Part shown: positions 2,418 through 29,450 of the stretch, in pieces | Layout: each line of letters opens with the position of its first letter | Numbering within the stretch: the first letter of the stretch is position 1 | NCBI GenBank assembly: GCA_963675915.1 | Contig: OY780959.1 | Span: forward strand, 540,001-572,000 | Reading direction: 5' to 3' | Length of the DNA: 32,000 nucleotides | From: Coprobacillaceae bacterium | Lineage (GTDB): Bacteria; Bacillota_I; Bacilli_A; Erysipelotrichales; Coprobacillaceae | Notes under the pieces: generated by a model | The model's input: the letters and a program-made list of their open reading frames with translations, nothing else | Told to the model about the DNA's origin: nothing | The model's database searches: none | Program-made: the position numbers and the translations under genes

Positions 2418-2443
2418 AGTTGTTTTATTAATAGTTGAAGTGA

Positions 2444-3747: not shown

Positions 3748-3770
3748 GAAACAATTTTTGTAATTGTTTC
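3748..3770. promoter_or_regulatory. perfect 9-5-9 inverted repeat in divergent intergenic region (candidate operator)
   Basis: GAAACAATTtttgtAATTGTTTC lies between the C-S lyase gene and the XRE regulator gene. Confidence 0.35.
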
Positions 3771-3797
3771 GCTAGAGTGGAAAATGTCATGCACCTG

Positions 3798-3806
3798 TGA
3801 TAGAAT
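3798..3806 (+). promoter_or_regulatory. extended -10 element (TGaTAGAAT) for the XRE regulator gene
   Basis: TGATAGAAT lies about 70 bp upstream of ATG 3878. The -35 is weak (TGGAAA). Confidence 0.4.
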
Positions 3807-3877
3807 AATTTCGACAAGAATTACATCTAAGAATAATCAATAATTAGTTGATTCTAAGGAAACTTTGAGGGGTGAAG

Positions 3878-4588: not shown

Positions 4589-4692
4589 GAAATATCTAAC
4601 GACGTTTCAGGCTAAACCGATCACTTTCCGCCCCAACCAGTGGCTGCAAAAAATGGTCTTATTAAATACCAAGTAAAATTTACACAATCATT

Positions 4693-4722
4693 ACGCAATT
4701 TTCATTTGAAGTTGCGTTTTTT
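4693..4722 (+). terminator. weak candidate terminator after XRE gene
   Basis: ACGCAA...TTGCGT 6-bp stem with a long loop, followed by TTTTTT. Confidence 0.35.
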
Positions 4723-4881
4723 GTTAAGTGATTTTTGATTATGAATCGGTGTTTGTACAATTGATATAATCCAAAGATTGGTAATAACCTTCTAATTGAG
4801 TTAACAACTTAGTGAACATATAAGTAGAAACTTGAAGCCAAAAAAATGGTTGACTGGTTATGGGGCACAATGTCTGACCGA

Positions 4882-4910
4882 TTGACAGACCTAGAACTTC
4901 TATGTATAAT
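4882..4910 (+). promoter_or_regulatory. consensus sigma-70/SigA promoter of the padR operon
   Basis: TTGACA (4882-4887), a 17-bp spacer, then TATAAT (4905-4910). Confidence 0.75.
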
Positions 4911-4912
4911 AT

Positions 4913-4929
4913 ACCTAGATTGTCTAGGT
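4913..4929. promoter_or_regulatory. perfect 7-3-7 palindrome, candidate PadR operator
   Basis: ACCTAGAttgTCTAGGT starts 3 bp after the -10. A partial copy GACCTAGAAC sits inside the spacer. Confidence 0.55.
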
Positions 4930-4950
4930 TTTAAGAAAGAGGGTGAAGAT

Positions 4951-5298
4951 ATGAAGATTGATAAGAATTTAATCGGTGGGAGTGCCATGCTGTTGATTTT
5001 GACCCTGCTAGAGCAAAAAGATATGTATGGGTATCAGATTATCAAAGAACTTGATGAAAGATCGGATAGCACTTTTCAATTCAAAGAGGGATCATTATAT
5101 CCGGTGCTGCACAAGATGGATAATAACGGCTATGTAAAATCATATTTGGCCAAGGGGGAAACCGGCAGAAGCCGCAAATATTATCGAATAACTCGAAGTG
5201 GACGGCGTCAGTTGAAAGAACAGAAGGAACAATGGGAAGAGTTCACTACGTCGGTCAATAAGGTATTAGGGGGAAACAGGGATGTCTTTGCACAATGA
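4951..5298 (+). CDS. PadR-family transcriptional regulator
   Basis: LLILTLLEQKDMYGYQIIKEL...GSLYPVLHKMDNNGYVKSY...RKYYRITRSGRRQL is the canonical PadR winged helix. ATG 4951 follows GAGGG. The 35 upstream codons of ORF 4846 cover the promoter and are not coding. Confidence 0.9.
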   Translation: MKIDKNLIGGSAMLLILTLLEQKDMYGYQIIKELDERSDSTFQFKEGSLYPVLHKMDNNGYVKSYLAKGETGRSRKYYRITRSGRRQLKEQKEQWEEFTTSVNKVLGGNRDVFAQ

Positions 5299-5998
5299 GA
5301 AGGATAATTATTTAAACCAGGTTATCGCTTACGTAAAATTTCCTTATGACAGAAAGAAAATATATCAGGAACTGGATGACCATATTATGGATAGGTGCGA
5401 TGACTTTGTAGAAGAGGGCTATAATCATGACCAGGCCTTAACCAAAGCTATTGCATTGATGGGTGATGCTGAACTTATAGGAAAAGAATTGAATAGAATG
5501 CACAATCCATTGCTAGGTTGGGTTTGGAAAATATCGGATTATGCGGTTAAGCTTATCGGAATAATTTTGATTGCATCTGTGGTTATGACAATAGTAAATT
5601 CAAGGGATTCCTTTGATCCCTACAGTGATATCAGTGAAAATAGCGTACTTTACCATCTTGAATTGGAAAAGACGGCTCAAATAGATGATGAAATAATCAC
5701 ATTGACTGATATATATTATGATGATAGTGAAACCTTGCATGTTTTCTTTACGACTCAACGAACGGGAATGATGATTTTTTCTGATCCGATCTCAAGTTAT
5801 GTCGGGGTATTTACTGATGGTGAGGGGAAAAGGTACGCGGGAGCTTCTAATCATTCCTCAAGGTACACCCGTAATATTATCCATAAAGAACTTTGGGATT
5901 TCCCTGCTACTCAAAAAAGATTAAATGTTGTCTATGATTATGTCGACAGACACTATGAATTTCATATCGATTTGAGTTTGGAGGATCAGGATGCATAG
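5282..5998 (+). CDS. PadR-associated membrane protein (permease-prefix/DUF1700-like N-terminal domain)
   Basis: It overlaps the padR stop. The N-terminal YLNQV...IYQELDDHI...GDAELIGKELN pattern is typical of proteins encoded after padR. There is one central hydrophobic helix. Confidence 0.6.
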   Translation: MSLHNEKDNYLNQVIAYVKFPYDRKKIYQELDDHIMDRCDDFVEEGYNHDQALTKAIALMGDAELIGKELNRMHNPLLGWVWKISDYAVKLIGIILIASVVMTIVNSRDSFDPYSDISENSVLYHLELEKTAQIDDEIITLTDIYYDDSETLHVFFTTQRTGMMIFSDPISSYVGVFTDGEGKRYAGASNHSSRYTRNIIHKELWDFPATQKRLNVVYDYVDRHYEFHIDLSLEDQDA

Positions 5999-6518
5999 AA
6001 TACTAAAGACTATAAGAAATTTCATTTTGATTGGATTGTTATTAGCGGTGTTTATGGCCTTTACCGGGATGCGACCAACACCAAATCAAGCCCATAAATA
6101 CAGCGATAAAGTCCGGCATTTTGGTCCCTCTGAAATTTTATCTGTATACAAATATGATGGTTATCAGGATATGTTATGCAAGTATGAAAATTGGATTACA
6201 TGTGATACTATTAGAGGGCGTCTGATTTTCTGGCAGAACAGCAATAATAGTGCATTTGAAATTGATAAGAGTGAATCTCTTAATTTCTCTGGAAGACTGA
6301 CATCGGATGGAGTCAATATTGTCTATGGAATTGTCAATGATCCTAATATCGCAAAAGTTAAGTTGAAAGTTCCAGGGATGGAGCCAATGATCCAAGAAGA
6401 GTTTCAGGATGACCTGTTTTATTTTACTTGGGAAAGTGTCTTGGATTTAACGGCGATAGAGGGGATTACAGGGTATAATCAAGAAGGAGAGCAAACCTGC
6501 AAATATACGCTATTTTAA
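5991..6518 (+). CDS. hypothetical membrane-anchored protein
   Basis: ATG 5991 follows GGAGGA and overlaps the upstream stop by 8 nt (translational coupling). N-terminal TM helix FILIGLLLAVFMAF. Confidence 0.55.
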   Translation: MHRILKTIRNFILIGLLLAVFMAFTGMRPTPNQAHKYSDKVRHFGPSEILSVYKYDGYQDMLCKYENWITCDTIRGRLIFWQNSNNSAFEIDKSESLNFSGRLTSDGVNIVYGIVNDPNIAKVKLKVPGMEPMIQEEFQDDLFYFTWESVLDLTAIEGITGYNQEGEQTCKYTLF

Positions 6519-6996: not shown

Positions 6997-7512
6997 ATGC
7001 TCATATTCAAGCAAGTAACGCCTAATGATGAAGCACTCATAGCAATCATGACCAGCTGGTATAATGATGATAGCATCCAACATTTCATCAAGCCTAACTT
7101 CCAGGAAGGTCCGTTTGAAAAATGTACGCAAGACAGTATTAAGGAATCTGTCAATGAGAAGAACAAATACTATTACATTGCCTTTGATGATGAACATCCC
7201 ATTGGAGAAGTCTCTATTACAGTTGACCCGGAACATCTGGCCAGAAAAGTTGAAAACACCGGTTGGATTTCAATTCTCATTGGTGAAGGTTCGTATAGAA
7301 AAAAAGGGTATGGCGATAAGCTGATGCATTTTATTGAAAAGACAGCTAAGGAGCTAGGTCTAAAGCGGATTGAACTGGGTGTTTTTGACTTTAATGAGAA
7401 TGCAATCAAGTTTTATCAAAAACTAGGGTATCTGCCCTTTTATGAGTTCAAAGATTTCACCTACTGGAATGAAACTTGGCATTCGGATATTCGGATGGAA
7501 AAATATCTGTAG
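6997..7512 (+). CDS. GNAT-family N-acetyltransferase
   Basis: GEVSI...ILIGEGSYRKKGYGDKLMHFIEKTAKELGLKRIELGVFDFNENAIKFYQKLGY is the acetyl-CoA binding core (R/Q-x-x-G-x-G/A type). ATG 6997 follows AAGGAG. Confidence 0.85.
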   Translation: MLIFKQVTPNDEALIAIMTSWYNDDSIQHFIKPNFQEGPFEKCTQDSIKESVNEKNKYYYIAFDDEHPIGEVSITVDPEHLARKVENTGWISILIGEGSYRKKGYGDKLMHFIEKTAKELGLKRIELGVFDFNENAIKFYQKLGYLPFYEFKDFTYWNETWHSDIRMEKYL

Positions 7513-7628
7513 TAAAATAACAGGTTGAACCTAGCCAGCCAATCAATCTATCAGTTCATGAGTTATATTAATGTTGTTAACAGTAATTACCAAAATACAA
7601 ATTACACTGAGATAAGGGAGATGGGCGA

Positions 7629-8042
7629 ATGATGGGAATTCTTTATAGGTTGCTAAAAGTAGTTACCAGCATGATAATATTTTGCCTTGAAGTTTATGTG
7701 ATTGTGTCGATTTCAAACAATTATGGTTGGTTTGAAGATGATTTTGTTTCTTATGGGGTTTTGCTGTCAATAGTAGCGATTTTAAATATTTTGATACCCT
7801 TATTGAAGAAGAAAAAAGGCCGCTCATATTTTAAGGGAATAATATTTAATACTATTATGACATTTATTGTGGTATTTGTTTTTATGGAGGTGTCTTCTTT
7901 AGTCAATAGTGTGACACCAGATGTGAAAGCTGAATTATCTGACTGGTATTACTTCGGCCCCGGATTGGTTTGGGCAATTTTGTTCCAGATAGCAATTGCA
8001 ATCCCTGAATTGTATTTATATCTAAATAAGCCAACAAAGTGA
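7629..8042 (+). CDS. hypothetical small polytopic membrane protein
   Basis: ATG 7629 lies 8 nt after AAGGGAG. About 4 hydrophobic helices. Confidence 0.55.
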   Translation: MMGILYRLLKVVTSMIIFCLEVYVIVSISNNYGWFEDDFVSYGVLLSIVAILNILIPLLKKKKGRSYFKGIIFNTIMTFIVVFVFMEVSSLVNSVTPDVKAELSDWYYFGPGLVWAILFQIAIAIPELYLYLNKPTK

Positions 8043-8260
8043 CGGAATTTATGTGGGGATGGATCGAAATGACTCTGATGTTTTTTTGGGATGCAGGTCA
8101 AATCACTTTTAGATAAGTTTCTGGATTTTTGGGAGTGGATAAAGGGATATGATTATTTTCAAAAAATATCATTGGAGATGATACCATACAAATCCCGGCA
8201 CAAAATGTTGCGACAACAACATATTAAAAAGATATACTTTTGTTGAAGGGAGGGATATTC

Positions 8261-9169
8261 TTGGATATATTAGACCGGATGAGCCAGGCAATTGCGTATT
8301 TGGAAGACAACATGACAGGTACGATTGTTCAGGTAGAATTGGCGCAAATAGCTGGTTGTTCATTTTACAATTTCTGTAGAATGTTTTCTTATATGACTGA
8401 TATTACTTTAACAGAATATATTCGCAGAAGAAGGCTTACTTTGGCGGCGATAGAACTTCAAAGCAGTGAGGTCAAAGTGATTGATCTGGCTTTAAGATAT
8501 GGTTACGATTCACCTGTTTCATTTTCACGGGCTTTTCAAAAACTTCATGGAGTCACGCCGACAAAAGCCCGAGCTGATGGAGTAACCCTGAAAGCATATC
8601 CGAGAATCTCTTTTCAAATTTCAATCAAAGGAGAAAAAGAAATGGATTATCGAATTGAAAGTAATGAAGCGTTTCAAATATTTGGTTACGAGGGAGTATT
8701 TAGCATTGACGCAGTCAGTTTGAATGGGGATAATCCCCATGAGCTATGGAACAGAAATCAGGCCAGTGGTGCCTATGAAAAACTCGTAGCTGATGCCGGT
8801 GATTTACCTCCATTCGTCTCTCAGGGATTATGCAAGGTACATGGAGTTTGTGATTATAAAGAAACTGAACCAGGAACATTCGCTTATATGCAGTGTGCTT
8901 TTAAAAGTACAAACAGCATTACTGATGGCTACTCGGTTGTCGATGTTCCGGCGTACACCTGGGTTATCCTACCTTCTGAAAAGTTCAAATGGGAAAATGT
9001 CATCGAAGTCATCAACAAGCTAAACAAGCGTTTTTATATGGAATGGCTGCCTACCTCCGAATATGAGCAAGCGGCTGGGATTAACTTTGAAGTGTATGGG
9101 GGCGATTTGGAGATGGGATATGTTGAACTTTGGTATCCAGTGCAAAAAAAGTCCGGGGGAAAATCATAA
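8261..9169 (+). CDS. AraC-family regulator with GyrI-like effector-binding C-terminal domain
   Basis: AraC HTH signature LALRYGYDSPVSFSRAFQKLHGVTPTKAR. The C-terminal half has the GyrI-like/SOUL pattern (FQIFGYEG...EVYGGD...VELWYPV). The start is uncertain: TTG 8261 after GGGAGGG, or ATG 8279. Confidence 0.82.
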   Translation: MDILDRMSQAIAYLEDNMTGTIVQVELAQIAGCSFYNFCRMFSYMTDITLTEYIRRRRLTLAAIELQSSEVKVIDLALRYGYDSPVSFSRAFQKLHGVTPTKARADGVTLKAYPRISFQISIKGEKEMDYRIESNEAFQIFGYEGVFSIDAVSLNGDNPHELWNRNQASGAYEKLVADAGDLPPFVSQGLCKVHGVCDYKETEPGTFAYMQCAFKSTNSITDGYSVVDVPAYTWVILPSEKFKWENVIEVINKLNKRFYMEWLPTSEYEQAAGINFEVYGGDLEMGYVELWYPVQKKSGGKS

Positions 9170-9424
9170 TAGTTATGATATTGTAGTGGCCAGCTCCAAC
9201 TATCTTTTATTCAATCTGAAATTGGTTTGCACTTGAATATAGGACTTTATTTGAACCATATGCCTGTCACGTACTGATGTGATTAAGATAATAAATTTAT
9301 CCAATAAATATCGCTTTACATTTACACCTGGAGCGTATTTTCATTAAAACGACATGTATTTGTTTTATAGAAAGGATATTCTCTAAACGAGCGTAGAAAT
9401 CTGATATCTTGAAGGAGGGAAAGA

Positions 9425-10977: not shown

Positions 10978-11454
10978 ATGACTAAAACATATACGACTGA
11001 AGAAAAAATAAAATTGATCAATCAAACATTGCCACCACTCAACAAAACTGTTGTTCAGATTGCTGCTGAAACTGGAATCAAAACTTCGACTCTTTATTCC
11101 TGGAAGCGTAGATACCTAAAATGTGCCGTTAATTCCAAAATCAAGGAACGTTACAGCAAGGCTGAAAGATTCCACTTTATCGTCGAATCCGCTTCGTTGA
11201 ACGAACACGAACTTGGAGAATATTGCCGGCAAAAAGGAATTTATCCTGATGAGCTGACAAAGTGGAAAAATGAATTTCTCAATGTTTCCAGTCAAGATGA
11301 TTCTGCGAAGGCCGAATTGCACAAGGAGCGAAGAAAACGTAAAGAGCTGGAAAAAGAACTCAAGCGCAAAGAAAAGGCTTTGGCTGAAGCTGCTGCGCTA
11401 CTGGTTCTTGAAAAAAAGCTCCAAGCAATTTGGGACGAAGAAGAGGAAGATTAA
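10978..11454 (+). CDS. IS3-family transposase OrfA (HTH)
   Basis: AAGGAG RBS. HTH VVQIAAETGIKTSTLYSWKRRY and a C-terminal leucine-zipper-like KELEKELKRKEKALAEAAALLVLEKKL, typical of IS3 OrfA. Confidence 0.9.
   Translation: MTKTYTTEEKIKLINQTLPPLNKTVVQIAAETGIKTSTLYSWKRRYLKCAVNSKIKERYSKAERFHFIVESASLNEHELGEYCRQKGIYPDELTKWKNEFLNVSSQDDSAKAELHKERRKRKELEKELKRKEKALAEAAALLVLEKKLQAIWDEEEED
11412..11418 (+). other. programmed -1 ribosomal frameshift heptamer A-AAA-AAG
   Basis: The heptamer is in phase with orfA codons GAA AAA AAG. The orfB frame is exactly -1 and is open from here. Confidence 0.75.
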
Positions 11455-12533
11455 CCTCTCTCAAATTGCGTAAACTAATCGTTTCATTGATCAAAGACGC
11501 CAACGAAAATGGTGCTCGATTGATTCCGGCGTGTAAAGTGGTTGGAATATCCAAACGAACATATGAACGGTGGACCAATGAAACAGATGTGTTGGCTGAC
11601 AAACGAACGACAGCTATTAGACCTGTGCCGGCCAATAAGCTAAGCGATGATGAGCGCCAAGTCGTAATTGACACTGTCAATTCTCCTAAATACAATTCTC
11701 TGCCTCCATCAACGATAGTGCCTAAGTTAGCTGACGAAGGTAAATATATTGGCTCAGAATCAACCATTTACCGCATTCTAAGGGAAAATAAACAATTGAA
11801 ACATCGTGGAAGAAGCAAGGAGCCTCAAAAGCAGGTCCCGACAACACATATTGCCAAAGCACCCAACGAGGTTTGGAGTTGGGATATTACTTGGTTGCAC
11901 CGTAAGGATGTTAGGGGAGTTTATTACAAGTTATACATGATAATGGATATTTTCAGCCGGAAGATTGTCGGACATGAAGTGTGGGAAACGGAAAATGCCG
12001 AATATTCCCAAACTCTTATAAAAAGGACACTGTTAAAAGAAAAGATAAGTGGCAGATCGCTTGTGCTGCATTCAGATAATGGTGGCCCAATGAAAGCATC
12101 ATCATTCCTGGGAACGCTTGAAAAATTAGGTGTGCAAAGCTCGTTTTCAAGGCCGAGAGTAAGTAATGACAATCCATATTCGGAAGCACTGTTCAAAACG
12201 CTAAAATACATTCCTAAGTATCCAACCAGCGGGTTTGAATCACTGGAACATGCCCGAGAATGGACTAGTGAATTCGTCCATTGGTACAATGAAGTCCATT
12301 ACCATAGCGGCATCAATTATGTAACCCCAGGAAGCAGACATCGTGGCGAAGATATCGAGATATTGAAGAATCGCAAAAGTGTTTACGCCCTTGCAAGAAT
12401 GAAGCATCCTGAGAGATGGAGCGGTAATACTAAAACCTGGGAATATCAAACAACGGTTGCCCTGAATCCAACCGATGAAGAAAAAAACATGATCCAGAAA
12501 AAGAAATATCAAACAAACCAAATCTACGCATAA
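11430..12533 (+). CDS. IS3-family transposase OrfB (DDE/rve catalytic domain), expressed as OrfAB fusion
   Basis: WSWDITWL (D), HSDNGGPMKA (D), ...NDNPYSEALFKTLK (E) and YNEVHYHSGINYVTP form the rve integrase core. Confidence 0.9.
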   Translation: MGRRRGRLTSLKLRKLIVSLIKDANENGARLIPACKVVGISKRTYERWTNETDVLADKRTTAIRPVPANKLSDDERQVVIDTVNSPKYNSLPPSTIVPKLADEGKYIGSESTIYRILRENKQLKHRGRSKEPQKQVPTTHIAKAPNEVWSWDITWLHRKDVRGVYYKLYMIMDIFSRKIVGHEVWETENAEYSQTLIKRTLLKEKISGRSLVLHSDNGGPMKASSFLGTLEKLGVQSSFSRPRVSNDNPYSEALFKTLKYIPKYPTSGFESLEHAREWTSEFVHWYNEVHYHSGINYVTPGSRHRGEDIEILKNRKSVYALARMKHPERWSGNTKTWEYQTTVALNPTDEEKNMIQKKKYQTNQIYA

Positions 12534-14721: not shown

Positions 14722-16410
14722 AAAATTTGAGGTAGTGTCAAACAGGTATGAAAAGTATGATTAATTTGTTATGGAGTTGTTGATGATGTAATCATTGGCC
14801 ATAGCGATAATCATATTCCATTTTCTAGGCATGTTGGTCACACCTTCGAATGATTCCAGTTTAACTGGAGGACTGTATTCCAAAGAACTATGCTTCCTGA
14901 GGAAATTAAAGTATGTGGTAAACAGACACATGAATTCATTTGCTTTGTTTAAATCCGCAAATCCATTCTTTACGTAATAAGAAAACTTGAATGTTCTGTT
15001 CAATCTTTCAATTATCTGCTTTTGAGGTCGGTAAATCTTTGAAGCTTCATCCTTGTTTTCTAAACCTATTACCTGATGGACTTTGAATTTCCTGTCTTGC
15101 AATAGGAAATATTGTTGAGCGGCAAGATAGATTGGATTGCCATCAACTACAAAACTCAAGCCTTCGGGAATGGCGGTAAACTTTCTGAGTACTGAATAGT
15201 AGGCTTGGATAGCTGAAAAGGTATCTCTTTTCATAAAGATATTATATGAAGTGATTATCTTCTTGATGCTGTCACACATGAAAAAGACATAGGCTTTGTT
15301 ACCGTTGATTTTAACGTAGGTTTCATCACCGCATTGATCTGGTGTCAATTCACCGTATTGGTAATTGTCTAACCAGGGGTTGATTAGACAGCTTGCCGCT
15401 TCGGCGTAATTGGCAACGGTTTGGTGAGATACATCGACATCATGTACTTCTTTGAGAATCAATGCAGTTTTTCTTAGGGATAGTCCATAATTGATGTGAT
15501 ACGTGAGGATTAAACCTAGTATTTCCTTAGAATTTTTGATTCTGGATAGTTGAACTCTTGAAGGGGTAATAGTCGCCTGGAGCTGTTCTAGTTGTTCTAT
15601 GGACGCACTAAAAACCCTAGTAATATAGCGAAGTTTGAAAGCGGATGGATTCTTCTTGTATAGCTTTTTCTCTTGTTTACTAAGGGAGCGGATATTGTGT
15701 TTGTAGTAGGTGCATTCCCTGTTTGAGCATCGATATACTGTGAAATGATCTCTGACATGATGAGGGTCGAGTTTCCGACCGCAGTAAGGACAGTGATGTG
15801 CAACTTGTTGGATATAAGGTTTCCCGGGAATAAAAGTTGTATCACAAACCTTGCAGCGACACTGCTGGGAGATTTTTCCGGATCTGTTGTCATAAAGATA
15901 TTCGTAAGGAGCACCGCAGTGAGGGCAGACAGTATCTTTGGGTATGTTTAAAGGAACTCGTCTATTTATAGGTTTGGGCGAGCGACCGTTATGCTTTGAT
16001 TTGTAGATTTCAACAGCTTTAGAGAATGTGATTGGAAGATTTTCTTCTTTGATGAGAGGAACCGGATCAACTTTGAATTTGCGGTATTGTTCGCCCATTA
16101 TTAAAGTATCAGGATCTTTGGGAAGAAATTTCATCAAAAAGCATTCGAATTTGAAAGAAATTTTATTGACAATATTCAATAATTTGATAATTAGTGATAT
16201 AATCTTAGCCATGGTAATAGTTCTCCTTTACTTGTGGTTTTGTCACTTACAATTATAGGAGCTATTGCCTTTTTTGTATATTGAAATGGCTAAGTTATAT
16301 GTCGATTCCGGAGGGGAGCGACTAAAATAGATAAAAAACCTAGGTAGAATGCGGTTTACCAGTTATTTAAAGCTATAAATAACTAACTGGTTTTGACACT
16401 ACCAAATTTG
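14722..16410 (-). mobile_element. IS6-like insertion sequence
   Basis: Terminal inverted repeats AAATTTGAGGTAGTGTCAAAC (14723-14743) versus the reverse complement of 16390-16409, AAATTTGGTAGTGTCAAAAC. They flank a single DDE transposase gene. Ends are good to about 5 bp. Confidence 0.65.
14761..16212 (-). CDS. IS6-family-like DDE transposase with long N-terminal multi-CxxC zinc-finger extension
   Basis: GDETYVKINGNKAYVF (IS26/IS257-type DETYxK motif), VVDGNPIY, and QIIERLNRTFKF (E). The N-terminus carries CPHCG, CKVCD, CPYCG and CSNREC. AAGGAG RBS. Confidence 0.82.
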   Translation of the reverse strand: MAKIISLIIKLLNIVNKISFKFECFLMKFLPKDPDTLIMGEQYRKFKVDPVPLIKEENLPITFSKAVEIYKSKHNGRSPKPINRRVPLNIPKDTVCPHCGAPYEYLYDNRSGKISQQCRCKVCDTTFIPGKPYIQQVAHHCPYCGRKLDPHHVRDHFTVYRCSNRECTYYKHNIRSLSKQEKKLYKKNPSAFKLRYITRVFSASIEQLEQLQATITPSRVQLSRIKNSKEILGLILTYHINYGLSLRKTALILKEVHDVDVSHQTVANYAEAASCLINPWLDNYQYGELTPDQCGDETYVKINGNKAYVFFMCDSIKKIITSYNIFMKRDTFSAIQAYYSVLRKFTAIPEGLSFVVDGNPIYLAAQQYFLLQDRKFKVHQVIGLENKDEASKIYRPQKQIIERLNRTFKFSYYVKNGFADLNKANEFMCLFTTYFNFLRKHSSLEYSPPVKLESFEGVTNMPRKWNMIIAMANDYIINNSITN

Positions 16411-19005: not shown

Positions 19006-20086
19006 CATCACTCAAATTGCGTAAACTGATTGTATCGTTAATTAAGGAAGCTAATGAAAATGGAGCCCGGCTGATTCAAGCTTGTAAAGTTGCCGAAATC
19101 TCAAAACGAACTTATGAACGTTGACCAAGGAAGTAGATGTTTTGCCCGATAGACGCAGGACAGCTATACGACCCACCCCAGCTAATAAACTGAGTGAGCA
19201 AGAGCGAAAGATTGTGATTGATACTATCAACTTACCTGAATACAGTTCTATGTCCCCTTTGGAAATTGTTCCTAAATTGGCTGATAAAGGCGAATATATT
19301 GCTTCGGAATCAACCATTTACCGGATTTTAAGAGAGAACAAGCAATTGAAGCATCGAGGTCGGAACAAGGAGCCAAAAAGCAAAATCCCGACAACACATA
19401 TCGCCAATGCACCTAACGAGGTTTGGACTTGGGACATAACTTGGTTGCATCGTAAAGATGTTCGTGGTATCTATTACAAACTCTACATGATCATGGATAT
19501 CTTCAGTCGCAAGATAGTCGGTTACGAAGTCTGGGAAGAAGAGAACGCTATCCATTCCCAGACACTGATTAAAAGAACCCTTTTAAAGGAAAGCATCTGT
19601 GGTAAACCGCTTGTATTACATTCGGATAATGGCGGCCCCATGAAGGCCTCATCATTCTTGGGTACGCTTGAAAAACTTGGTGTTCAAAGCTCATTTTCGA
19701 GGCCAAGAGTAAGCAATGACAATCCATCTTCGGAATCACTATTCAAAACTTTGAAATACATTCCAAAGTATCCAACCAGTGGAGTTGAATCAATGGATCA
19801 TGCCAGAGAATGGACCAGTAAATTCGTCCATTGGTATAACGAAGTTCATCTCCATAGCGGCATCAACTACGTTACCCCAGGGAGCAGACATCGTGGCGAA
19901 GATATCGAAATACTTAAGAAACGAAAAGAAGTATACGCCCGTGCTAGATTGAAGCACCCTGAAAGATGGAGTAGAGATATCAAAAATTGGAAGTACCAAG
20001 CCACGGTTGCTTTGAACCCAACTGATGAAGATAAAATCATGATCGAACAAGAGAGTTACCAAAAAACCAAATCTATGCATGATTAA
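18969..20086 (+). pseudogene. IS3-family orfB, copy 2, disrupted by a 1-nt deletion
   Basis: Copy 1 reads CGG TGG ACC AAT GAA. Copy 2 reads CGT TG- ACC AAG GAA, which gives TGA at 19122-19124 in the orfB frame. The rest of the ORF continues in another frame from 19121. Confidence 0.8.
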
Positions 20087-20464: not shown

Positions 20465-21052
20465 ATGGATACAGATGAAAAAATACAAGAAAGTAAAAAA
20501 ATATACTCAATTGATGAATTGAAAAATTTAGGATATTCGCACTATAAAATCAACAAATTTGTCCAAGAGGGAAAACTTGTCAAATTGAACAAGAAATTCT
20601 ACGAAAATGTGCAATATACAGGAGATGAAAATGATTTTTATTATGCTAAAGCTTATGTTTCTTCAGGGGTTATTTGTTTATTAAGTGCAGCGGTTCATTA
20701 TAATCTATCTAATTATAGACCGGACGGAATCGATGTGGCGATTCATAGAAGCAAAAAGATTACAACACTTCCAGATTGGCCTGTTTTGAATCTATATTAT
20801 TTTGATGAAGTAAGATATGAAACAGGAATAGTCACTGAAAAATTTGGTGATAATTATTTCGATATCTATGATATCGAAAAAACGGTTATAGATATTATAT
20901 ATTATAGAAATAAAATTGGAATTGAGGAGACAAAAGAAATATTAATAAGTTATCTTAAGCGCGGTGATAGAGACATAAACAAGCTGTACAAGTATGCTAA
21001 GTTACTCAAGTGCCATGAAATTTTACAAACATATCTGGAGGTATTAGTATGA
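20465..21052 (+). CDS. abiEi: type IV toxin-antitoxin / abortive infection antitoxin AbiEi-like
   Basis: Its size, its position directly upstream of an AbiEii-like gene with ATGA overlap, and an N-terminal wHTH-like segment. Confidence 0.7.
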   Translation: MDTDEKIQESKKIYSIDELKNLGYSHYKINKFVQEGKLVKLNKKFYENVQYTGDENDFYYAKAYVSSGVICLLSAAVHYNLSNYRPDGIDVAIHRSKKITTLPDWPVLNLYYFDEVRYETGIVTEKFGDNYFDIYDIEKTVIDIIYYRNKIGIEETKEILISYLKRGDRDINKLYKYAKLLKCHEILQTYLEVLV

Positions 21053-21945
21053 CAAATCCTGAATCGATTAAAGCGCGACTAAAAAATCAAGCAATTGAAA
21101 AAGGACATCTATTTCAAACTGAGTTAACAACATATGCTTTAGAGCGTACTATTTATAGAATTTCCATATCTGATTATGTCGAAAAATTCACTTTAAAGGG
21201 TGGGATATTTCTATATGCTTTATTTGATGGGAATTTTACTAGAGCAACCAGCGATATAGATCTGTTGGCTTACAAAATAAGTAATGAGATGCAAGACATG
21301 AGAAAAATATTTGGAAAAATCTTTTCCATAGTTGTAGATGATGCTTTGCATTATGATTTGGATTCTTTAAATGTAGTAAGTATCACGGAATTTAAAAATT
21401 ACCATGGTGTCAATGTTTCTATTTTCTCTTATCTGGGAAATACAAAAATCCGTGTTTCAATCGATATTGGATTTGGTGATGTAGTATATCCTGATAGATT
21501 ATTAATTGATTTCCCGGTATTACTTGAGATGGAGGCTCCTAGGATTTACGCATATTCACTTAGCTCGGTAATAGCAGAAAAATTTGAAGCAATCGTCTCT
21601 ATTGGTCCCGCGAATAGTAGATATAAGGACTTCTACGATATTTATATAATTGCTGCGAAATATGATTTTCATGGAGATGAGTTAAAATCAGCAATACTAG
21701 AGACGTTTAATCATCGTGGTACAGTTTTTGATGAAATTATTGCATTTGAAAATGATTTCGCTCTTGATAAGCTTAGAAATACAAGGTGGAAATCTTTTAT
21801 TAACAAGAAGAAAGCATTAGAAGTAATTGAATTTCCTGAAGTTATGGAGTTTATAAAAAGATTCCTGATTCCAGTTGTTTCGTCTATCCAAAATTTAGAG
21901 AATTTGAATAAAGATTGGAATTCAGATGAAAAACGCTGGCAGTAA
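21049..21945 (+). CDS. abiEii: nucleotidyltransferase AbiEii/AbiGii-family toxin (DUF1814)
   Basis: N-terminus IKARLKNQAIEKGHLFQTELTTYALERTIYRIS...FTLKGGIFL...RATSDIDLL is the family signature. Confidence 0.85.
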   Translation: MTNPESIKARLKNQAIEKGHLFQTELTTYALERTIYRISISDYVEKFTLKGGIFLYALFDGNFTRATSDIDLLAYKISNEMQDMRKIFGKIFSIVVDDALHYDLDSLNVVSITEFKNYHGVNVSIFSYLGNTKIRVSIDIGFGDVVYPDRLLIDFPVLLEMEAPRIYAYSLSSVIAEKFEAIVSIGPANSRYKDFYDIYIIAAKYDFHGDELKSAILETFNHRGTVFDEIIAFENDFALDKLRNTRWKSFINKKKALEVIEFPEVMEFIKRFLIPVVSSIQNLENLNKDWNSDEKRWQ

Positions 21946-23454: not shown

Positions 23455-24384
23455 ATGATGGCACGCAAAGAAAGAAGAAAACAAGTTGCTGGCTATGATC
23501 TGGTGGCTTTAGCTCAAGAACTAGATTATACGCCAGTAAAAGTCGGTAGACGGTATTATACCCTGGAGGAGCACGATTCGGTTAGAATCGATACATTCAA
23601 GAATACTTTCAAACAATATTCCACTGGTATCGGTTATGATCCGGTGGCTTTTTTGATGCATTTTGGAGCAATAAAGAATGCAAGGTTCAAGAGTCTGGAT
23701 TACTGCTTGTTTTATCTTGAAAAAGGACTGGATAAAAACAAGACAAATAACCAACACAAGGAAGAATTAATCTATCGGAAAAAAGAAACAAAAAAATTGG
23801 AGCTACCAGAAAGAGCTGGCAATAACGATAGAATATACCGGTATTTGCACGGAAACAGGAAGATATCCACTGAAATCATTGATTATTTTATCGGAAATGA
23901 TCTGCTGTATCAGGATAGCAAGAATAATTGTGTTTTTGTTTCCTATAAAAATGAGATACCGGTATTTGTTACTGAAAAGGGAACCGGTAGAACCAGATAT
24001 ATGAATGAGCACACAGGCAATGACTATGGTCATTGTTTTTTTATTGACAATCATCAAAGCAACTTGATAGTCACCGAAGCGATTGTTGATTTGATGTCGT
24101 TGATGACGCTGCATCCGTATATCCTTTATTCAAATAGTTTCCTGTCAATAAATTCGGTGACAAAGGACAATGCAATATATTGTCATTTGAAAAATAACCC
24201 GGAAATAAAATCGGTAGTTCTGGCCCTTGATAATGATGAACCAGGGATCAAAGCAACTAAAAGGATTAAAGAGACGATAGAATCGGAATTTCCGGATATC
24301 TTGGTTGAAGTTCGTATACCTAAAAACAAGGATATCAACGAGGATTTGATTGAAAAATCGAATACACGAGGATTGGTCTTATGA
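23455..24384 (+). CDS. DUF3991/Toprim-domain protein (conjugative-element primase-like)
   Basis: C-terminal Toprim: LIVTEAIVDLMSL (E) and VVLALDNDEPGIKA (DxD). The N-terminal half is typical of DUF3991 proteins of Gram-positive plasmids and ICEs. Confidence 0.75.
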   Translation: MMARKERRKQVAGYDLVALAQELDYTPVKVGRRYYTLEEHDSVRIDTFKNTFKQYSTGIGYDPVAFLMHFGAIKNARFKSLDYCLFYLEKGLDKNKTNNQHKEELIYRKKETKKLELPERAGNNDRIYRYLHGNRKISTEIIDYFIGNDLLYQDSKNNCVFVSYKNEIPVFVTEKGTGRTRYMNEHTGNDYGHCFFIDNHQSNLIVTEAIVDLMSLMTLHPYILYSNSFLSINSVTKDNAIYCHLKNNPEIKSVVLALDNDEPGIKATKRIKETIESEFPDILVEVRIPKNKDINEDLIEKSNTRGLVL

Positions 24385-24463: not shown

Positions 24464-24469
24464 GAGAGG
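24464..24469. repeat. left copy of 6-bp target-site duplication GAGAGG
   Basis: It directly abuts the TGT end of the transposon and is identical to 27785-27790. Confidence 0.8.
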
Positions 24470-24678
24470 TGTCGCTAGCCAGTTTATATGGTAAGTATTT
24501 CTAGGATTTTATGCAAATTAAATAGAGGCCATTGCCAATTAATTTGAATGTTTATTCTTCAAATTAGTTGAACCTGACCTCTTTTTTTGTTACCTTGTTG
24601 ATAAATATTCCATAGAAAGAAAAAAACGAGAGACCCAACCTGCAAGTAGTTTCTCTCGTTTGCCATATAGACAAACGT

Positions 24679-25233
24679 ATGATAACTTATCACAACGATA
24701 AAATCAAGAGTAAATTACTCGAAATCGATTCCGAATCAAAGCTCCAAGCTTTTTATAACGAAGCTGTAAATGATATTAACCGTTACGCCATCGGTTGTGT
24801 CAACTCATGCAATGGTAATCACATCATTCATGGTTATTATAACCGAAGGGTAAAACTGCCTTTTGGCTTTTTCAGGTTGCGGATAATGCGGCTAAGATGC
24901 AAGGATTGCGGTAGAACCCATGCAATTCTTCTTTCATGTTTGGTTCCATATTCAAGTATCCCGTTGGCTGTTCAAGTTGAGATTTCCATACATAAAAATA
25001 ATCAGAAACTATTAAAAGCCATTCTTGATCGAAATCCCTATATGTCTGAGTGTGAAATTTATAATGTTGTGAGCAGGTATATCAATTTTTGGCAGCAACG
25101 TTTGATGTCATTGAGAATTGAATCAAATGATATTAACCGTCTTGTTGAAAGCTGTTTTTCAAATTATTTGATGCAGTTCATGCAATGTAGAAATACCATA
25201 AATATCCTGTATACAATCAACCACATAGGATGA
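24679..25233 (+). CDS. zinc-ribbon protein, DUF6431-like, first gene of the transposon
   Basis: CVNSCNGNH...LRCKDCGRTHAILLSCLVPYS. Proteins of this type are commonly annotated next to Mu-like transposase and ATPase pairs. There is no obvious RBS, so the start is uncertain. Confidence 0.55.
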   Translation: MITYHNDKIKSKLLEIDSESKLQAFYNEAVNDINRYAIGCVNSCNGNHIIHGYYNRRVKLPFGFFRLRIMRLRCKDCGRTHAILLSCLVPYSSIPLAVQVEISIHKNNQKLLKAILDRNPYMSECEIYNVVSRYINFWQQRLMSLRIESNDINRLVESCFSNYLMQFMQCRNTINILYTINHIG

Positions 25234-25281
25234 GTTAAATAATCGATTCTATTAGTATATAGTGGGTGACGGAGGTATTAT

Positions 25282-26529
25282 ATGGATAAAAAAGAACAAG
25301 AATACGTAGCGTTGATGCGCCATCGGATCATTCATGACATCATTACCGGAAATTATGATGCTGCATGGTCTAAGAATCAGGCGATTACGGAAGCTACCAA
25401 GAAAGTCTATAAGAGTTTCGACAACCGTGATTTCACTGTCTCAAGCAGTACCATCTCCAGATGGATTGCTGCTTACGAAGAAAAAGGCTTCGATGGATTG
25501 ATTCCTCAAAAGCGGAGTGATTGTGGCAAGTCAAGAAGACTGGATGATGACATCGTTGAAACAATCAAATATTATAAGACAACCTATCCTAGATTGCCGG
25601 CAACTGTAATATACGGCAAGTTGATTGAGAAAGGAATCATCAAGAAAACTGATGTTTCCCTATCAACCGTTAACCGATGTGTCAATCAGATAAAGTCGGA
25701 ATTGCGGCTTTCAAACAAGAAAGACATGCGTCGCTACGAAGTGCCCCATATCAATATGAACTGGGCTGGCGACAGTTCGGTCGGCCCTTACATAACCATT
25801 AATGGCAAGAAGAACCGGACATACATGATTGCCCTGATCGATGATGCTTCAAGGATGATCGTCCATCTTGATTTGTATTTGAATGACAACACAGTCAATT
25901 TGATGGATACCATGAAAAGTGCGGTAACAAAATATGGAGTTCCTGAGATGTTCAGGTTTGACAACGGCTCCAATTATCGAAATCACCAGATCAAGATGAT
26001 TGCAGCAAGGATTAATTCAACCATTAGCTACTGCAAACCGTACTCGCCGGAAGGAAAATCAAAAATTGAGCGGGTGTTTCGGACGATCAAAGATCAGTTC
26101 TTCGCCCAAATAAACATAAAAGATTACACAAACAATCTAGAAGGTTTGAAGCAGGATTTAAGCCAGTTCATCAATGATTACAACAACAAGGTGCATTCGT
26201 CTTTGAATGGATTGACACCTCATCAACGTTTTTTTCAGGAAAGCAACCTTATCAAAAGGCTTGATGATGACTTTATCGACAACACTTTCCTGTTCGAAGT
26301 AGAGCGGTCTGTCAGTACTGATTCGGTAATCAAAATAGATAATCGGGAATACGAGATTGATTATATCTATTCTGGTGAAAGGCATATGTTCCGATATACT
26401 CCGGACTTGGAAAACGTCTATATAGTCAACAAGAATACCGGCGAACTGGAACGGATTCACCTACTTGATAAAAACGCCAATTCAAAAGTAAAACGAGTGC
26501 AGCCAAAATTATGCGGAGGAGAAGATTAA
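25282..26529 (+). CDS. DDE (rve) transposase, Mu/TnsB/TniA-like
   Basis: N-terminal HTH, WAGDSS (D), FRFDNGSNYRN (D), YSPEGKSKIERVFRTIKDQF (E). GGAGG RBS. Confidence 0.88.
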   Translation: MDKKEQEYVALMRHRIIHDIITGNYDAAWSKNQAITEATKKVYKSFDNRDFTVSSSTISRWIAAYEEKGFDGLIPQKRSDCGKSRRLDDDIVETIKYYKTTYPRLPATVIYGKLIEKGIIKKTDVSLSTVNRCVNQIKSELRLSNKKDMRRYEVPHINMNWAGDSSVGPYITINGKKNRTYMIALIDDASRMIVHLDLYLNDNTVNLMDTMKSAVTKYGVPEMFRFDNGSNYRNHQIKMIAARINSTISYCKPYSPEGKSKIERVFRTIKDQFFAQINIKDYTNNLEGLKQDLSQFINDYNNKVHSSLNGLTPHQRFFQESNLIKRLDDDFIDNTFLFEVERSVSTDSVIKIDNREYEIDYIYSGERHMFRYTPDLENVYIVNKNTGELERIHLLDKNANSKVKRVQPKLCGGED

Positions 26530-27332
26530 TGGAAAAATATTGGACCAGATATGGATTGGAATTCAATCCGTTTATCAAGAACTCAAAGAATTTATTTATT
26601 GAAACAAGTGAATACCAGGAATTGAAAGTACGCCTTAACAGCCTTTTTGAAATCAAGGGTTTCGGACTAATAGTCGGTGAACCCGGCCATGGCAAAACAA
26701 CCATGATCAGAAACTATATCAAAACACTCCCCAAATCAGCTTACAAGATAATTTATTTGTCAATGTCGACCCTTACAGTCAAGGAGTTCTATATGCAACT
26801 AGCTGAGTCGCTGGATCTGACTCCTCGGTATCGAAAGAATGATCTGTTCAGGGAGATCCAATCAGCCATAAACCAGTTGATTTACGAAAAAAGGATTACC
26901 CCGGTGTTTATCTTTGATGAATGTAATTACATGAATAACGCCATTCTTAATGATTTGAAGATGATCTTCAATTTTGATATGGATTCCAAGGATCATGCTG
27001 TAGTCTTGATGGTCGGATTGCCGACAATAACAAGGAACCTGAAATTAACCGCTCATGAACCATTGCGCCAGCGAATGATTATCAATTACAAACTTGAGCC
27101 ATTGAACAAGAGTGAAAGTCTTGCTTATATCAAAGACAAGCTCCAAGGCGGAAAAACAATTCAAGAAGTGTTCAATGATAATGCAATTGAGGCAATCATC
27201 AATGCATCCAACGGCACCTGTCGGGTTATTGATCGGATATGTGACCGGGCAATGTTTATCGGAGCAATCAGAAAAATCGAAGTAATTGATTCCGATTTAA
27301 TCCTAGAAACAATCGAAGAGGTAGTAATTTGA
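26529..27332 (+). CDS. AAA+ ATPase, TniB/ExeA-like transposition protein
   Basis: Walker A GEPGHGKTT and Walker B VFIFDECN. The ATG overlaps the transposase stop (TAATG) after GGAGGAG. Confidence 0.85.
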   Translation: MEKYWTRYGLEFNPFIKNSKNLFIETSEYQELKVRLNSLFEIKGFGLIVGEPGHGKTTMIRNYIKTLPKSAYKIIYLSMSTLTVKEFYMQLAESLDLTPRYRKNDLFREIQSAINQLIYEKRITPVFIFDECNYMNNAILNDLKMIFNFDMDSKDHAVVLMVGLPTITRNLKLTAHEPLRQRMIINYKLEPLNKSESLAYIKDKLQGGKTIQEVFNDNAIEAIINASNGTCRVIDRICDRAMFIGAIRKIEVIDSDLILETIEEVVI

Positions 27333-27637
27333 TAATCGAATACTTCTGCAACTATGATGAAAAAACATGGGCCAACGAGATAGTAATAGTCTCACAAAAC
27401 CCAGATAAGTGTGAATTCCAGCTAAGATATGACGGAAATGAAATCGAAGTGATAGTAGGTAAATCAGCCAAAGGGAACTGGATTTGCATCCCGTTGATGA
27501 AGCTGGGACTGGAACTATCATATTTCAAAGACAAATTTTGGAACAAGTCAGCTCTATTGCGCGAGATAGATCCAATCAGCAGCGAAGCAATATCACAAGC
27601 AATCTACAAAATAAACGAGTCAGGGATAATCGTCTAA
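27329..27637 (+). CDS. hypothetical 102-aa protein, last gene of the transposon
   Basis: TTG 27329 follows GAAGAGG and overlaps the ATPase stop by 4 nt. No recognisable motif. Confidence 0.5.
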   Translation: MIIEYFCNYDEKTWANEIVIVSQNPDKCEFQLRYDGNEIEVIVGKSAKGNWICIPLMKLGLELSYFKDKFWNKSALLREIDPISSEAISQAIYKINESGIIV

Positions 27638-27784
27638 AAAGGCGATTATTTTCTTTTTCCTCTAAAACATCATTTCAAATAAACTGAATATTCCATTCGA
27701 TTAATTTGAAGAGCATCAAAAAAGGGCCAAAAGAAGGTCCATATAATTTGAAGAATCATCCATCAAATAAATTGACTAGCTACA

Positions 27785-27790
27785 GAGAGG
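27785..27790. repeat. right copy of 6-bp target-site duplication GAGAGG (doubles as parA RBS)
   Basis: It directly follows the ...GCTACA transposon end and lies 8 nt upstream of parA ATG 27799. Confidence 0.8.
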
Positions 27791-27798: not shown

Positions 27799-28569
27799 AT
27801 GAAAGTCATAAATATTATTAACGCTAAGGGAGGAGTCGGAAAAACGACCACAGCTCTTAATCTTGCAGTGGGTCTTGCCGATATGGGCAATAAGGTATTG
27901 GTAATTGATGCGGATCCTCAGGGCAATGCGACAGTATCGATCAATTTTGAAAATAACGGTCTGGATCTTGATATCAACAACGTTCTACAAAATACCAATG
28001 ATATCTCCGAATGCATCTACAAGTCGGAATTTGAAAATCTTGATATTATTCCATCATTCAATATGGAATTGATTTTGACAGACAAGATTATCTTCACATC
28101 AGTCAACCGCGAGTCAAAGCTATCAAAACAATTGAGGAAAATCCGAAAGTCATATGAATATGTGATTATCGATAATGCACCTACATTCAACACGATTACG
28201 ACAAACACATTAAACTGCAGCGAAGATGTGATTATCCCCATGACCGATACTCATCTCTCAGAATGCGGGAAGCAAATGACGTTGATGCAGCTGGAAGAAC
28301 TAGGAAGTTCTGATTGTCTGGACCGGAAGTTCAACATCAAGATACTCTTTACAATGATTCATCGTGGCAATAGACCCAAAACGTTGGATTTTATTGAACA
28401 GACCAAGGAAGTGAATAACGTATATCAGACAACCATCGGTTACCAGGATGGAGTCATCAAAGATTTTGAATTAAGTAAGAAGGTAGTCATCAGAACCACA
28501 AACAAAAAGAAAAAAGTAGGCTTCGATTACCAGGACTTTGTACGGGAATTTGTCGACACAGTTGACTAG
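27799..28569 (+). CDS. parA: ParA/Soj-family partition ATPase
   Basis: MKVINIINAKGGVGKTTTALNLA deviant Walker A, then VLVIDADPQGN. The listed ORF start 27706 lies inside the transposon end and is rejected. Confidence 0.9.
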   Translation: MKVINIINAKGGVGKTTTALNLAVGLADMGNKVLVIDADPQGNATVSINFENNGLDLDINNVLQNTNDISECIYKSEFENLDIIPSFNMELILTDKIIFTSVNRESKLSKQLRKIRKSYEYVIIDNAPTFNTITTNTLNCSEDVIIPMTDTHLSECGKQMTLMQLEELGSSDCLDRKFNIKILFTMIHRGNRPKTLDFIEQTKEVNNVYQTTIGYQDGVIKDFELSKKVVIRTTNKKKKVGFDYQDFVREFVDTVD

Positions 28570-28631: not shown

Positions 28632-28670
28632 TTGATTATTTGATAGACAATACAAGGAGAAAAAAAGAAA

Positions 28671-29450
28671 ATGTTAAGCAATTTTATAGATCAAAGGGAT
28701 AAGTTGATCAAGTCGTCAAAGATAAAGAAAGTCGATATCGAGGACATCGTCAAAAACCCAAATAATGAATTTTCAATCAATGACCTGGATGAATTGAAGG
28801 AATCAATTAGATTATACGGATTGAAGAATAACATCACCGTATACGATGAAGATGAAAACGGTGAATACATGATCCAGTCTGGTCATCGCAGATTTGAATG
28901 TGTCAAGGCTCTTCATGACGAAGGATTGATTAGCGATGAAATACCGGTATACGTAATTCCGCCAGAGCAGGATACCATTCAATCGAAACTGGATTTAGTT
29001 CTGGCTAATGCGCAACGGAATTTATCTGAAGATGATAAAACCAACCTGGTAGGATCTTTGCTCAATATCTGGAGTGAAATGTCTGATGACATGCGTCCCA
29101 AAGGAAAGAAAAGAGACTGGATTGCCGGATTCATGGGATGTTCCGGGCGAACAGCACAAGTCTACATCAATTCATTCGAACAGGATGAAAACGGAGTGTA
29201 TGAAACCGTGGAGGAAAAAACCAATGACGATAGTATTTCAGAAGATAAAGACACTTATGATTACGCTAGACTATCCAAGGATATCAGTATTATCAAAAAC
29301 AAATTGAAAAAGGTACTAAAAAATTGTGATGAGAATAGTCTTAGCGAAATCGTGGTATCAGACCATAACGGCAAGACTGCTGATATAGGCAGTGTCCTTG
29401 AAAATCAATTGGTTCGTTTTGAGGCGATTGTAGAGATGATGAGCGACTAG
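28671..29450 (+). CDS. parB: ParB-like partition protein (ParB/Srx N-terminal domain)
   Basis: KKVDIEDIVKNPNN...LKESIRLYGLKNNITVY...IQSGHRRFECV is the ParB box region. It follows parA. Confidence 0.8.
   Translation: MLSNFIDQRDKLIKSSKIKKVDIEDIVKNPNNEFSINDLDELKESIRLYGLKNNITVYDEDENGEYMIQSGHRRFECVKALHDEGLISDEIPVYVIPPEQDTIQSKLDLVLANAQRNLSEDDKTNLVGSLLNIWSEMSDDMRPKGKKRDWIAGFMGCSGRTAQVYINSFEQDENGVYETVEEKTNDDSISEDKDTYDYARLSKDISIIKNKLKKVLKNCDENSLSEIVVSDHNGKTADIGSVLENQLVRFEAIVEMMSD

Follow-up and report, generated by a model that had tools for sequence, protein, structure and literature searches.

Transposons of the Mu (A/B), Tn7 (TnsB/TnsC) and Tn5053/Tn402 (TniA/TniB) types pair a transposase that combines a helix-turn-helix (HTH) region, an RNase H core and a beta-barrel with an AAA+ partner of the initiator clade, and their insertion duplicates 5 bp of target DNA. 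Insertion sequences (IS) of the IS481 family are usually assigned to a copy-out/paste-in pathway; they are typically elements of ~1-1.3 kb with a single open reading frame (ORF) and TGT tips, and their target duplications span a range that includes 6 bp. A mechanistic framework is available for IS21, MuA/MuB, TnsB/TnsC and IstA/IstB (PMC11208146). In this study, we analyzed a stretch of 32,000 nucleotides from a Coprobacillaceae bacterium (assembly GCA_963675915.1, contig OY780959.1, positions 540,001 to 572,000 of the forward strand; hereafter the window) that carries a 3,315-bp element at positions 24470-27784, with TGT...ACA tips and four genes, all on the plus strand, inserted at the ribosome-binding site (RBS) of parA. 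With a probability of about 85%, we regard this element as an intact, recently inserted IS-like transposon of a widespread, unnamed Bacillota family whose core consists of a DUF6431 protein, a DDE transposase and an AAA+ ATPase. The kind of system is well known, and this particular architecture is very common but unnamed in the searchable literature.

A sequence-only reading of the window had predicted the insertion from its ends, from a flanking 6-bp duplication and from the RBS that reappears when the element is removed. We compared it with an independent copy on the chromosome of a Coprobacillaceae metagenome-assembled genome (OY776328.1; locus L001), with a copy on a Logan contig (L010) and with two uninterrupted sites, one on a 2.57-Mb contig (L040) and one on a Logan contig (L041). 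The features that define the insertion are:

24470-27784, plus strand: whole transposable element, with bounds fixed by the empty site and by L001 (3190-6504), where an independent copy has the same length
24470-24491, plus strand: left terminal inverted repeat TGTCGCTAGCCAGTTTATATGG with TGT tip
27763-27784, minus strand: right terminal inverted repeat, read on that strand as TGTAGCTAGTCAATTTATTTGA, identical in L001
24464-24469, no strand: left GAGAGG duplication copy, the original Shine-Dalgarno sequence of parA
27785-27790, no strand: right GAGAGG duplication copy, the present Shine-Dalgarno sequence of parA, 8 nt before the ATG at 27799
23455-24384, plus strand: DUF3991/Toprim gene, immediately upstream of the target site
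27799-28569, plus strand: parA, 256 aa, intact, whose RBS was the insertion target

The left end TGTCGCTAGCCAGTTTAT (24470-24487) and the right end ...ATAAATTGACTAGCTACA (27767-27784) agree as inverted repeats at 15 of 18 positions, and the extended repeats at 17 of 22. The TGT tip and an ATTTATxTG block of the left repeat are kept in L001, L010 and a further locus (L013), and a degenerate end pattern allowing up to 3 mismatches detected no site in the 32 kb beyond the two ends. Both GAGAGG copies are perfect. The ambiguity between a 6-bp and a 7-bp duplication is minor, with A both as the base preceding the left copy and as the final base of the element.

A search with the Toprim protein identified a homologue of 100% identity on a 2.63-Mb contig, one of 88% in L040 and one of 79% in L041. 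In L040 and L041, parA follows Toprim directly, with gaps of 93 and 90 bp, respectively. The uninterrupted site in L040 reads ...ACGAAAGAGAGGCAACGAAAATG, and its junction ...ACATACAGAAAAACGAAAGAGAGGCAACGAAAATGAAAGTC, with one GAGAGG, equals the window minus 24470-27790 letter for letter; L041 also contains one GAGAGG, eight bases before the ATG. When 24470-27790 was removed, the window and L040 aligned as a single block of 8,629 bp across the junction, with 94.75% identity. Hence, the predicted repeats and the GAGAGG duplication were seen where expected, an uninterrupted Toprim-parA junction exists with the anticipated sequence, and the RBS-spacer-ATG restored by removing the element matches L040 exactly. 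The duplication also regenerates the RBS, as had been proposed, with GAGAGG at its native 8-nt spacing before the parA start. ParA is identical to its L040 homologue at 251 of 256 residues and parB is intact. The par genes are undecayed, and the insertion is real and recent. Not every source yielded a relative of this site: BLAST of the element and its left flank against the PLSDB plasmids gave no match in either near or distant mode, exact-sequence look-ups of the Toprim and ParA proteins of the window and of proteins P0121 and P0124 returned no record, and a metagenome scan with Toprim retrieved relatives of at most 48% identity and other gene order, which were unusable as empty sites.

The element contains just four ORFs, none with a Resolvase domain. 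They agree with the description in the sequence-only reading, which had also noted the lack of a resolvase and of cargo:

24679-25233, plus strand: DUF6431 zinc-ribbon protein, 184 aa (PF20020), with C-x3-C...C-x2-C followed by a helical C-terminal half
25282-26529, plus strand: DDE transposase, 415 aa (Pfam rve/HTH_32), with N-terminal HTH, RNase H core (D164, D227, E263) and C-terminal beta-barrel
26529-27332, plus strand: AAA+ ATPase, 267 aa (AAA_22), of the MuB/TnsC/Tn552-p271 type
27329-27637, plus strand: DUF6618 protein, 102 aa, with a TTG start overlapping the ATPase stop, present in part of the family only

The catalytic triad of the transposase is invariant in 114 homologues and aligns with the triad of Tn552 p480. 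An AlphaFold2 model (pLDDT 84.6) shows N-terminal helical DNA-binding domains, the RNase H core and a six-stranded C-terminal barrel (strands 338-392). Foldseek matched this model to TnsB of ShCAST (1.7e-20), IstA (2e-17), TnsB of Tn7 and MuA, with E values from 1e-20 to 1e-13, at 12-19% identity to the solved TnsB/MuA-type proteins, and the sequence matched phrog_310 of PHROG (1e-51), a transposable-phage family of the Mu A type. In the ATPase, the Walker A (GEPGHGKT) and Walker B (DE) motifs are invariant. Its profile matches MuB (8xvb) over positions 21-263, nearly full length (E 5.4e-6), as well as Cdc6 and VchTnsC (0.016 for VchTnsC), and it is similar to phrog_296, annotated 'DNA transposition protein' (4.8e-25), and to the ExeA-like TIGR03015 (1e-32); the Pfam match to TniB is weak (8e-4) and below the cut-off. 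The third protein, DUF6431, has the family pattern C-x(2-4)-C...C-x2-C with C40, C74 and C77 invariant. A word-based search found just 3 homologues of it, and an exhaustive search found 691 clusters at 50% identity. Outside the family its similarity is weak and to generic zinc ribbons only, including Zn_ribbon_ISL3. Profile searches of DUF6431 and DUF6618 against the PDB returned noise only, and other searches with DUF6618 were uninformative. The stop of the transposase gene overlaps the start of the ATPase gene (TAATG), the stop of the ATPase gene overlaps the start of the DUF6618 gene (TTTGA), and each of these starts has a Shine-Dalgarno sequence; the start of the DUF6431 gene has none. From this layout, the four genes form one operon, in which the transposase, ATPase and DUF6618 genes are translationally coupled.

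We compared these proteins and ends with the closest described systems. The proposal that the element is Tn552/Mu-like was borne out by homology to Tn552 p480 and p271, by the PHROG matches and by the fold matches, but the closest curated transposase model is that of IS481. The element is related to Tn552 and is not a member of the Tn552 family in the strict sense. By BLASTP, p480 is a distant relative of the transposase (27% identity over 289 aa, E 2e-22, covering the HTH and DDE core), and p271 is 25% identical to the ATPase over 266 of its 271 aa (E 2e-11). Both elements have the transposase gene followed by the ATPase gene towards one end, TGT tips and Firmicutes hosts. Tn552 in pMW2 is flanked by a 7-bp duplication (TAATTGT) and the element by one of 6 bp, within a shared range of 6-7 bp. 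Tn552, at 6.5 kb, encodes the BinL resolvase with a res site and bla cargo, whereas the element has half that size (3.3 kb), no resolvase domain and no cargo, and carries the extra DUF6431 and DUF6618 genes. The near-perfect repeats of Tn552 span ~50-116 bp, with blocks of 50 nt (88%) and 47 nt (83%) in pMW2; those of the element are short (17/22, plus one 40-nt arm at 80%) and accompanied by scattered 13-bp sites. The ATPases also differ in their score against the ExeA/TIGR03015 AAA_22 model, with 113.6 bits for the element and 27.7 bits for p271. The Tn552 transposase gene in pMW2 (L018, 5765-7304) is split into overlapping ORFs of 254 and 277 aa and is thus a frameshifted pseudogene, which explains its absence from the PLSDB gene table.

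The element shares with Mu, Tn7 and Tn5053/Tn402 the domain plan of the transposase and the type of its AAA+ partner; it differs from them in lacking TnsA, TniQ/TnsD and a resolvase, in its IS-like size and in its lack of cargo. Like IS21, it is IS-sized, combines a DDE transposase with a dedicated AAA+ helper and has multiple end repeats, and IstA is the second-best fold match. However, its transposase scores 65.8 bits on the IS21 model NF033546 (cut-off 160), and the ATPase is not of the DnaC-like IstB type, with no IstB_IS21 match in Pfam and no IstB among its PDB profile matches. The best NCBIfam match of the transposase is the IS481 model NF033577 (transpos_IS481; 5e-50 over residues 49-317), on which it reaches 170.6 bits, below the cut-off of 224 bits, while a Geobacillus relative reaches 255 bits and p480 reaches 103.8 bits. 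TGT ends and a duplication length within the family range are further common traits. In contrast to IS481, ~100 extra C-terminal residues of the transposase form the beta-barrel, an AAA+ ATPase and a zinc-ribbon protein always accompany it, and the four-gene operon has ~3 times the usual IS481 length. Because the IS481 model is also the best one for p480 and the Geobacillus member passes its cut-off, the family lies between IS481 and Tn552 in sequence space.

We next looked at the distribution of the element. More than 2,200 transposase homologues were found, with members in Clostridium, Geobacillus, Sporosarcina and Coprobacillaceae, in gut and soil Firmicutes. The order zinc ribbon-415-aa transposase-267-aa ATPase is conserved in the window, L001, L010, C. 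butyricum (L002-L009), C. estertheticum (L015), Geobacillus (L016) and Sporosarcina (L017). The DUF6618 gene is missing from the Clostridium butyricum and Geobacillus elements and is therefore a lineage-specific addition to a conserved core of three genes. The sequence-only reading had suggested a search for other copies, and a genome scan with the transposase found one locus, that of L001. This element is also 3,315 bp long, has the tips TGTAGATAGCC...GACTAGCTACA and its own 6-bp duplication (CTGAAG), and lies inside another transposase gene. A four-gene relative on C. estertheticum pCF007-A (L015; transposase 34% identical) has predicted bounds of 1905-5431, tips TGTAGTGCGTCAAA...ACA and the duplication TTATAC; these bounds were confirmed exactly, as C. 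tagluense copies match that interval and nothing beyond it, and four other plasmids carry the empty site of 468 bp (205 + 269 - 6) inside a choloylglycine hydrolase gene. In C. butyricum, at least six near-identical three-gene copies of 3,042 bp are present in one genome and a seventh in a metagenome contig, with the duplications TCATAC, ACAATG and CTTATA(T). Two inverted copies 646 kb apart (L002 and L003) have exchanged duplication halves (ATTGAC and CGTTAT), which indicates an inversion between them. The element is mobile, as is evident from sites found both filled and empty and from 6-bp duplications that arose independently several times. The documented targets are the parA RBS, a transposase gene, the choloylglycine hydrolase gene and intergenic and genic sites in C. 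butyricum, and no target-site consensus was seen in nine sites.

Several further observations concern variation among the copies. In C. butyricum GCA_013149575.1 (L002-L008; element at 3191-6232 of the locus), the tips are TA...TA (TATAGAATAGCA...TGCTATTCAATA) instead of the near-universal TG...CA, and one of the copies (L004) adjoins a separate pair of an rve/Mu-transpos_C_2 transposase and an IstB_IS21 protein (7329-9248), so that two distinct transposase and AAA+ systems coexist in one genome. The automated search for duplications and inverted repeats identified none on L010, L016 and L017. Comparison of the window with L001 revealed a mosaic: the left ~700 bp (24470-25170 versus 3190-3890), which comprise the left end and DUF6431, are 64-77% identical, with one 100-bp bin at 89%, and the remainder is 85-100% identical, mostly ~90-96%. 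Accordingly, the DUF6431 proteins are 71% identical and the transposases and ATPases 97-99%. A DUF6431 protein from a 2.63-Mb contig (P0121) resembles L001 over its first ~55 residues and the window beyond them, showing that element variants recombine.

The family has been touched on twice. In Clostridium sp. JS66 it is an unnamed 'repetitive gene cassette' of 15 copies that mediated a deletion in an evolved strain (bioRxiv 10.64898/2026.08.16.744336), and the other mention is in a gene table of a Ruminococcus gnavus paper (PMC12323340). The searchable literature contained no name or description of the family beyond these incidental mentions and its PGAP annotation is generic, consistent with the earlier remark that the architecture is poorly described.

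Short palindromic sites are a further property of the ends:

24535-24547 and 24559-24571, no strand: two 13-bp quasi-palindromes TCAAAT-N-ATTTGA that together form a larger palindrome, at element positions 66 and 90 also in L001 and L010
27675, 27697, 27739 and 27763 (span 27675-27775), no strand: four copies of the 13-bp motif at the right end
27724-27740, no strand: small GGACC...GGxCC hairpin
25159-25171, no strand: internal perfect copy of the end motif, TCAAATTATTTGA, at element position 689/690 in the window, L001 and L010

Arrays of short sites at each end also occur in Mu, Tn7, Tn552 and IS21. At up to 2 mismatches, TCAAAT-N-ATTTGA had 17 hits in the window, six of them in the two termini of ~115 bp. 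The 9 hits in the 28.7 kb outside the element give an expectation of ~0.07 for 230 bp of termini, a comparison that is partly circular because the motif came from these ends. Stronger and independent evidence comes from the conserved motif positions in L001 (88% identical overall) and L010 (77%). Such sites are unusual in being palindromic, which may point to a binding protein that is dimeric. The internal copy is located in the 3'-terminal part of the DUF6431 gene, ~120 bp ahead of the transposase start, and is perfect in three copies of the element whose overall identity is only 77-88%; it may act like an operator or an enhancer. A further copy of the 13-bp motif was found at 25123-25135.

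By homology, transposition could proceed as follows. The transposase would bind the TGT-tipped repeats together with the 13-bp sites arrayed over the terminal ~115 bp on either side, pair the ends, expose their 3' ends and join them to target DNA with a 6-bp stagger. The ATP-bound AAA+ protein, like MuB, TnsC or p271, would coat or mark the target, recruit and activate the transposase and probably confer target immunity, blocking insertion near existing copies. As the element encodes neither a TnsA-like second nuclease nor a resolvase, simple insertions probably result from Mu-like nick-join-repair or from cointegrates that host recombination resolves. DUF6431 is most likely a DNA-binding accessory or regulator acting on the palindromic 13-bp sites, which is the least certain step. 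We tentatively propose, as a possibility with the odds against it, that the DUF6431-DDE-AAA elements are a distinct IS family between single-gene IS481 and Mu/Tn552/Tn7. The zinc ribbon would then be a new third component that recognizes TCAAAT-N-ATTTGA sites in both ends and at the one internal position and couples end recognition, transposase expression and ATPase-dependent target choice. If this were true, the fast mosaic evolution of the zinc-ribbon gene and left end would amount to specificity switching between competing element lineages.

Could the element instead be an IS481-family IS with acquired accessory genes, whose transposase alone moves it by copy-out/paste-in, with the ATPase, DUF6431 and DUF6618 as passengers or dispensable modulators? 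We consider this improbable, although it is the alternative with the most in its favour. The transposase has its best NCBIfam match in transpos_IS481, the homologue on Geobacillus pGeo12a (L016) scores above the cut-off and is named IS481 by PGAP, and the TGT tips and 6-bp duplication fall in the ranges reportedly given for IS481 by Siguier et al. However, the score of the present transposase is below the cut-off, and a model that is also the best one for Tn552 p480 does not discriminate. The ATPase and DUF6431 genes have stayed together with the transposase gene, in translational coupling, down to 31% identity and across Clostridia and Bacilli; the transposase possesses an additional beta-barrel at its C terminus and is similar along its full length to TnsB, IstA and MuA; and the abutted ends, when read by eye, form no junction promoter of the sigma-70 type. 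A targeted transposon of the Tn7/Tn5053 type, with DUF6431 in the role of TniQ/TnsD and steering insertion to, for example, partition or resolution regions, is less probable still. The small zinc-binding protein does adjoin a transposase and AAA+ pair, the present copy sits at a par locus and serine recombinase genes are found only a few kb away from some relatives, but 48 DUF6431 proteins matched generic zinc ribbons only and in no case TniQ, the documented targets are unrelated and share no common sequence, and the duplication is 6 bp and not 5 bp. That the 3.3 kb are ancestral and were deleted in relatives, with repeats and GAGAGG copies arising by coincidence, is a bare possibility to which we give next to no credence and which the data in practice refute. 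Distant relatives do have another gene order (orf323-parA-parB-...-Toprim), but exact removal leaves one GAGAGG and the conserved RBS in two relatives, and other genomes carry this element, with these same tips but different duplications, at loci unrelated to the present one.

Some observations weigh against a mobile family that works like Mu and Tn552. IS481 provides the closest curated model, so the chemistry may differ from that of Mu and Tn552, and all resolved insertions have a 6-bp duplication where Mu, Tn7 and Tn5053 produce one of 5 bp. Tips other than TG...CA occur in the C. butyricum branch, and the copy in L010 has clear ends with flanks that show no matching duplication, which we attribute to assembly or recombination. 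The definition of the 13-bp motif came from the same ends in which it is enriched, its protein partner is a candidate only, and the AlphaFold model of DUF6431 is poor (pLDDT 52, from a shallow alignment). Finally, all mechanistic steps beyond movement and the 6-bp duplication are drawn from homology.

On the reading we prefer, of a recently inserted transposon, two hairpins bear on the consequences for parA:

24624-24661, no strand: conserved hairpin AAACGAGAGA...TCTCTCGTTT shortly before the DUF6431 start (z-scores -3.6 and -3.4)
27623-27652, plus strand: terminator-like hairpin with T-run that closes the operon, 147 bp before parA (z-score -3.2), kept in L001 and L010

The insertion is probably polar on parA-parB, because 3.3 kb with these two hairpins now separates parA from the upstream Toprim transcript. 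The earlier proposal that parA must now be transcribed through or out of the transposon is plausible, and the terminator-like hairpin at 27623-27652 speaks for polarity. In L001 and L010, a C:G pair of the first hairpin is replaced by T:A, a compensatory change (CGAGAG/CTCTCG versus TGAGAG/CTCTCA); on the minus strand this hairpin is followed by the T-run TTTTTTTCTTTC and is terminator-like for leftward transcripts. An Rfam search found no match in the element. A promoter scan performed at chance level (14 found versus 13.3 expected), so that no promoter was assigned to the element, and it gave no convincing promoter between the hairpins and parA. A TTGACT in the right tip was ruled out as a parA promoter, as its transcript start would fall downstream of the parA ATG.

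The locus does not lie on a free replicon. The identical Toprim and the empty site are both on contigs of ~2.6 Mb, which suggests that parA is part of a plasmid- or ICE-like element integrated in a ~2.6-Mb chromosome and not of a plasmid. The neighbours, among them AbiEii, Toprim, ParA/ParB and a giant surface protein (SpaA/TED), likewise suggest that a conjugative or plasmid-like element has integrated here. The replication and partition module is directly preceded (20465-21945) by a gene for an AbiEii toxin (298 aa) and a preceding ORF of 195 aa without Pfam hit; the two are conserved in L040 and are probably an AbiE-type toxin-antitoxin pair. The module has the order orf323-orf67-Toprim-parA-parB in the window, L040 and L041; in more distant relatives of the host element on human gut metagenome contigs (L019-L037), whose Toprim is 43-47% identical, the module is rearranged, with orf323-parA-parB-(1.3 kb)-Toprim as its order. 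A poly-A run before parB differs by one base between the window (28640-28675) and L040 (7860-7895), which extends the parB call in L040 by 40 codons, although both share the real start (AGGAG...ATG, MLSNFIDQ). Three more transposase genes are present in the window, at 11430-12533, 19121-20086 and 14761-16212 (minus strand), two of them similar and of the rve/HTH_32 type and one rve_3/IS240-like with a zinc ribbon. Similarity between the window and L040 begins only at ~20056, right behind the IS at 19121-20086.

Overall, the element is a cleanly bounded and apparently active minimal member of the transposase and AAA+ systems, 3.3 kb long and free of cargo, for which filled and empty sites are available. 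Its family is abundant in gut and industrial Clostridia and already causes rearrangements there, as seen in the deletion of the evolved Clostridium strain and the flank swaps of C. butyricum. Naming and characterizing the family would sharpen the annotation of the 'DDE-type integrase / AAA family ATPase / DUF6431' trios, of which there are thousands, and two DUF families could gain functions. The elements also offer a small system for asking how AAA+ regulators joined IS481-like transposases, and the parA locus is a natural experiment on how a polar insertion disrupts the partition operon of an integrated element.

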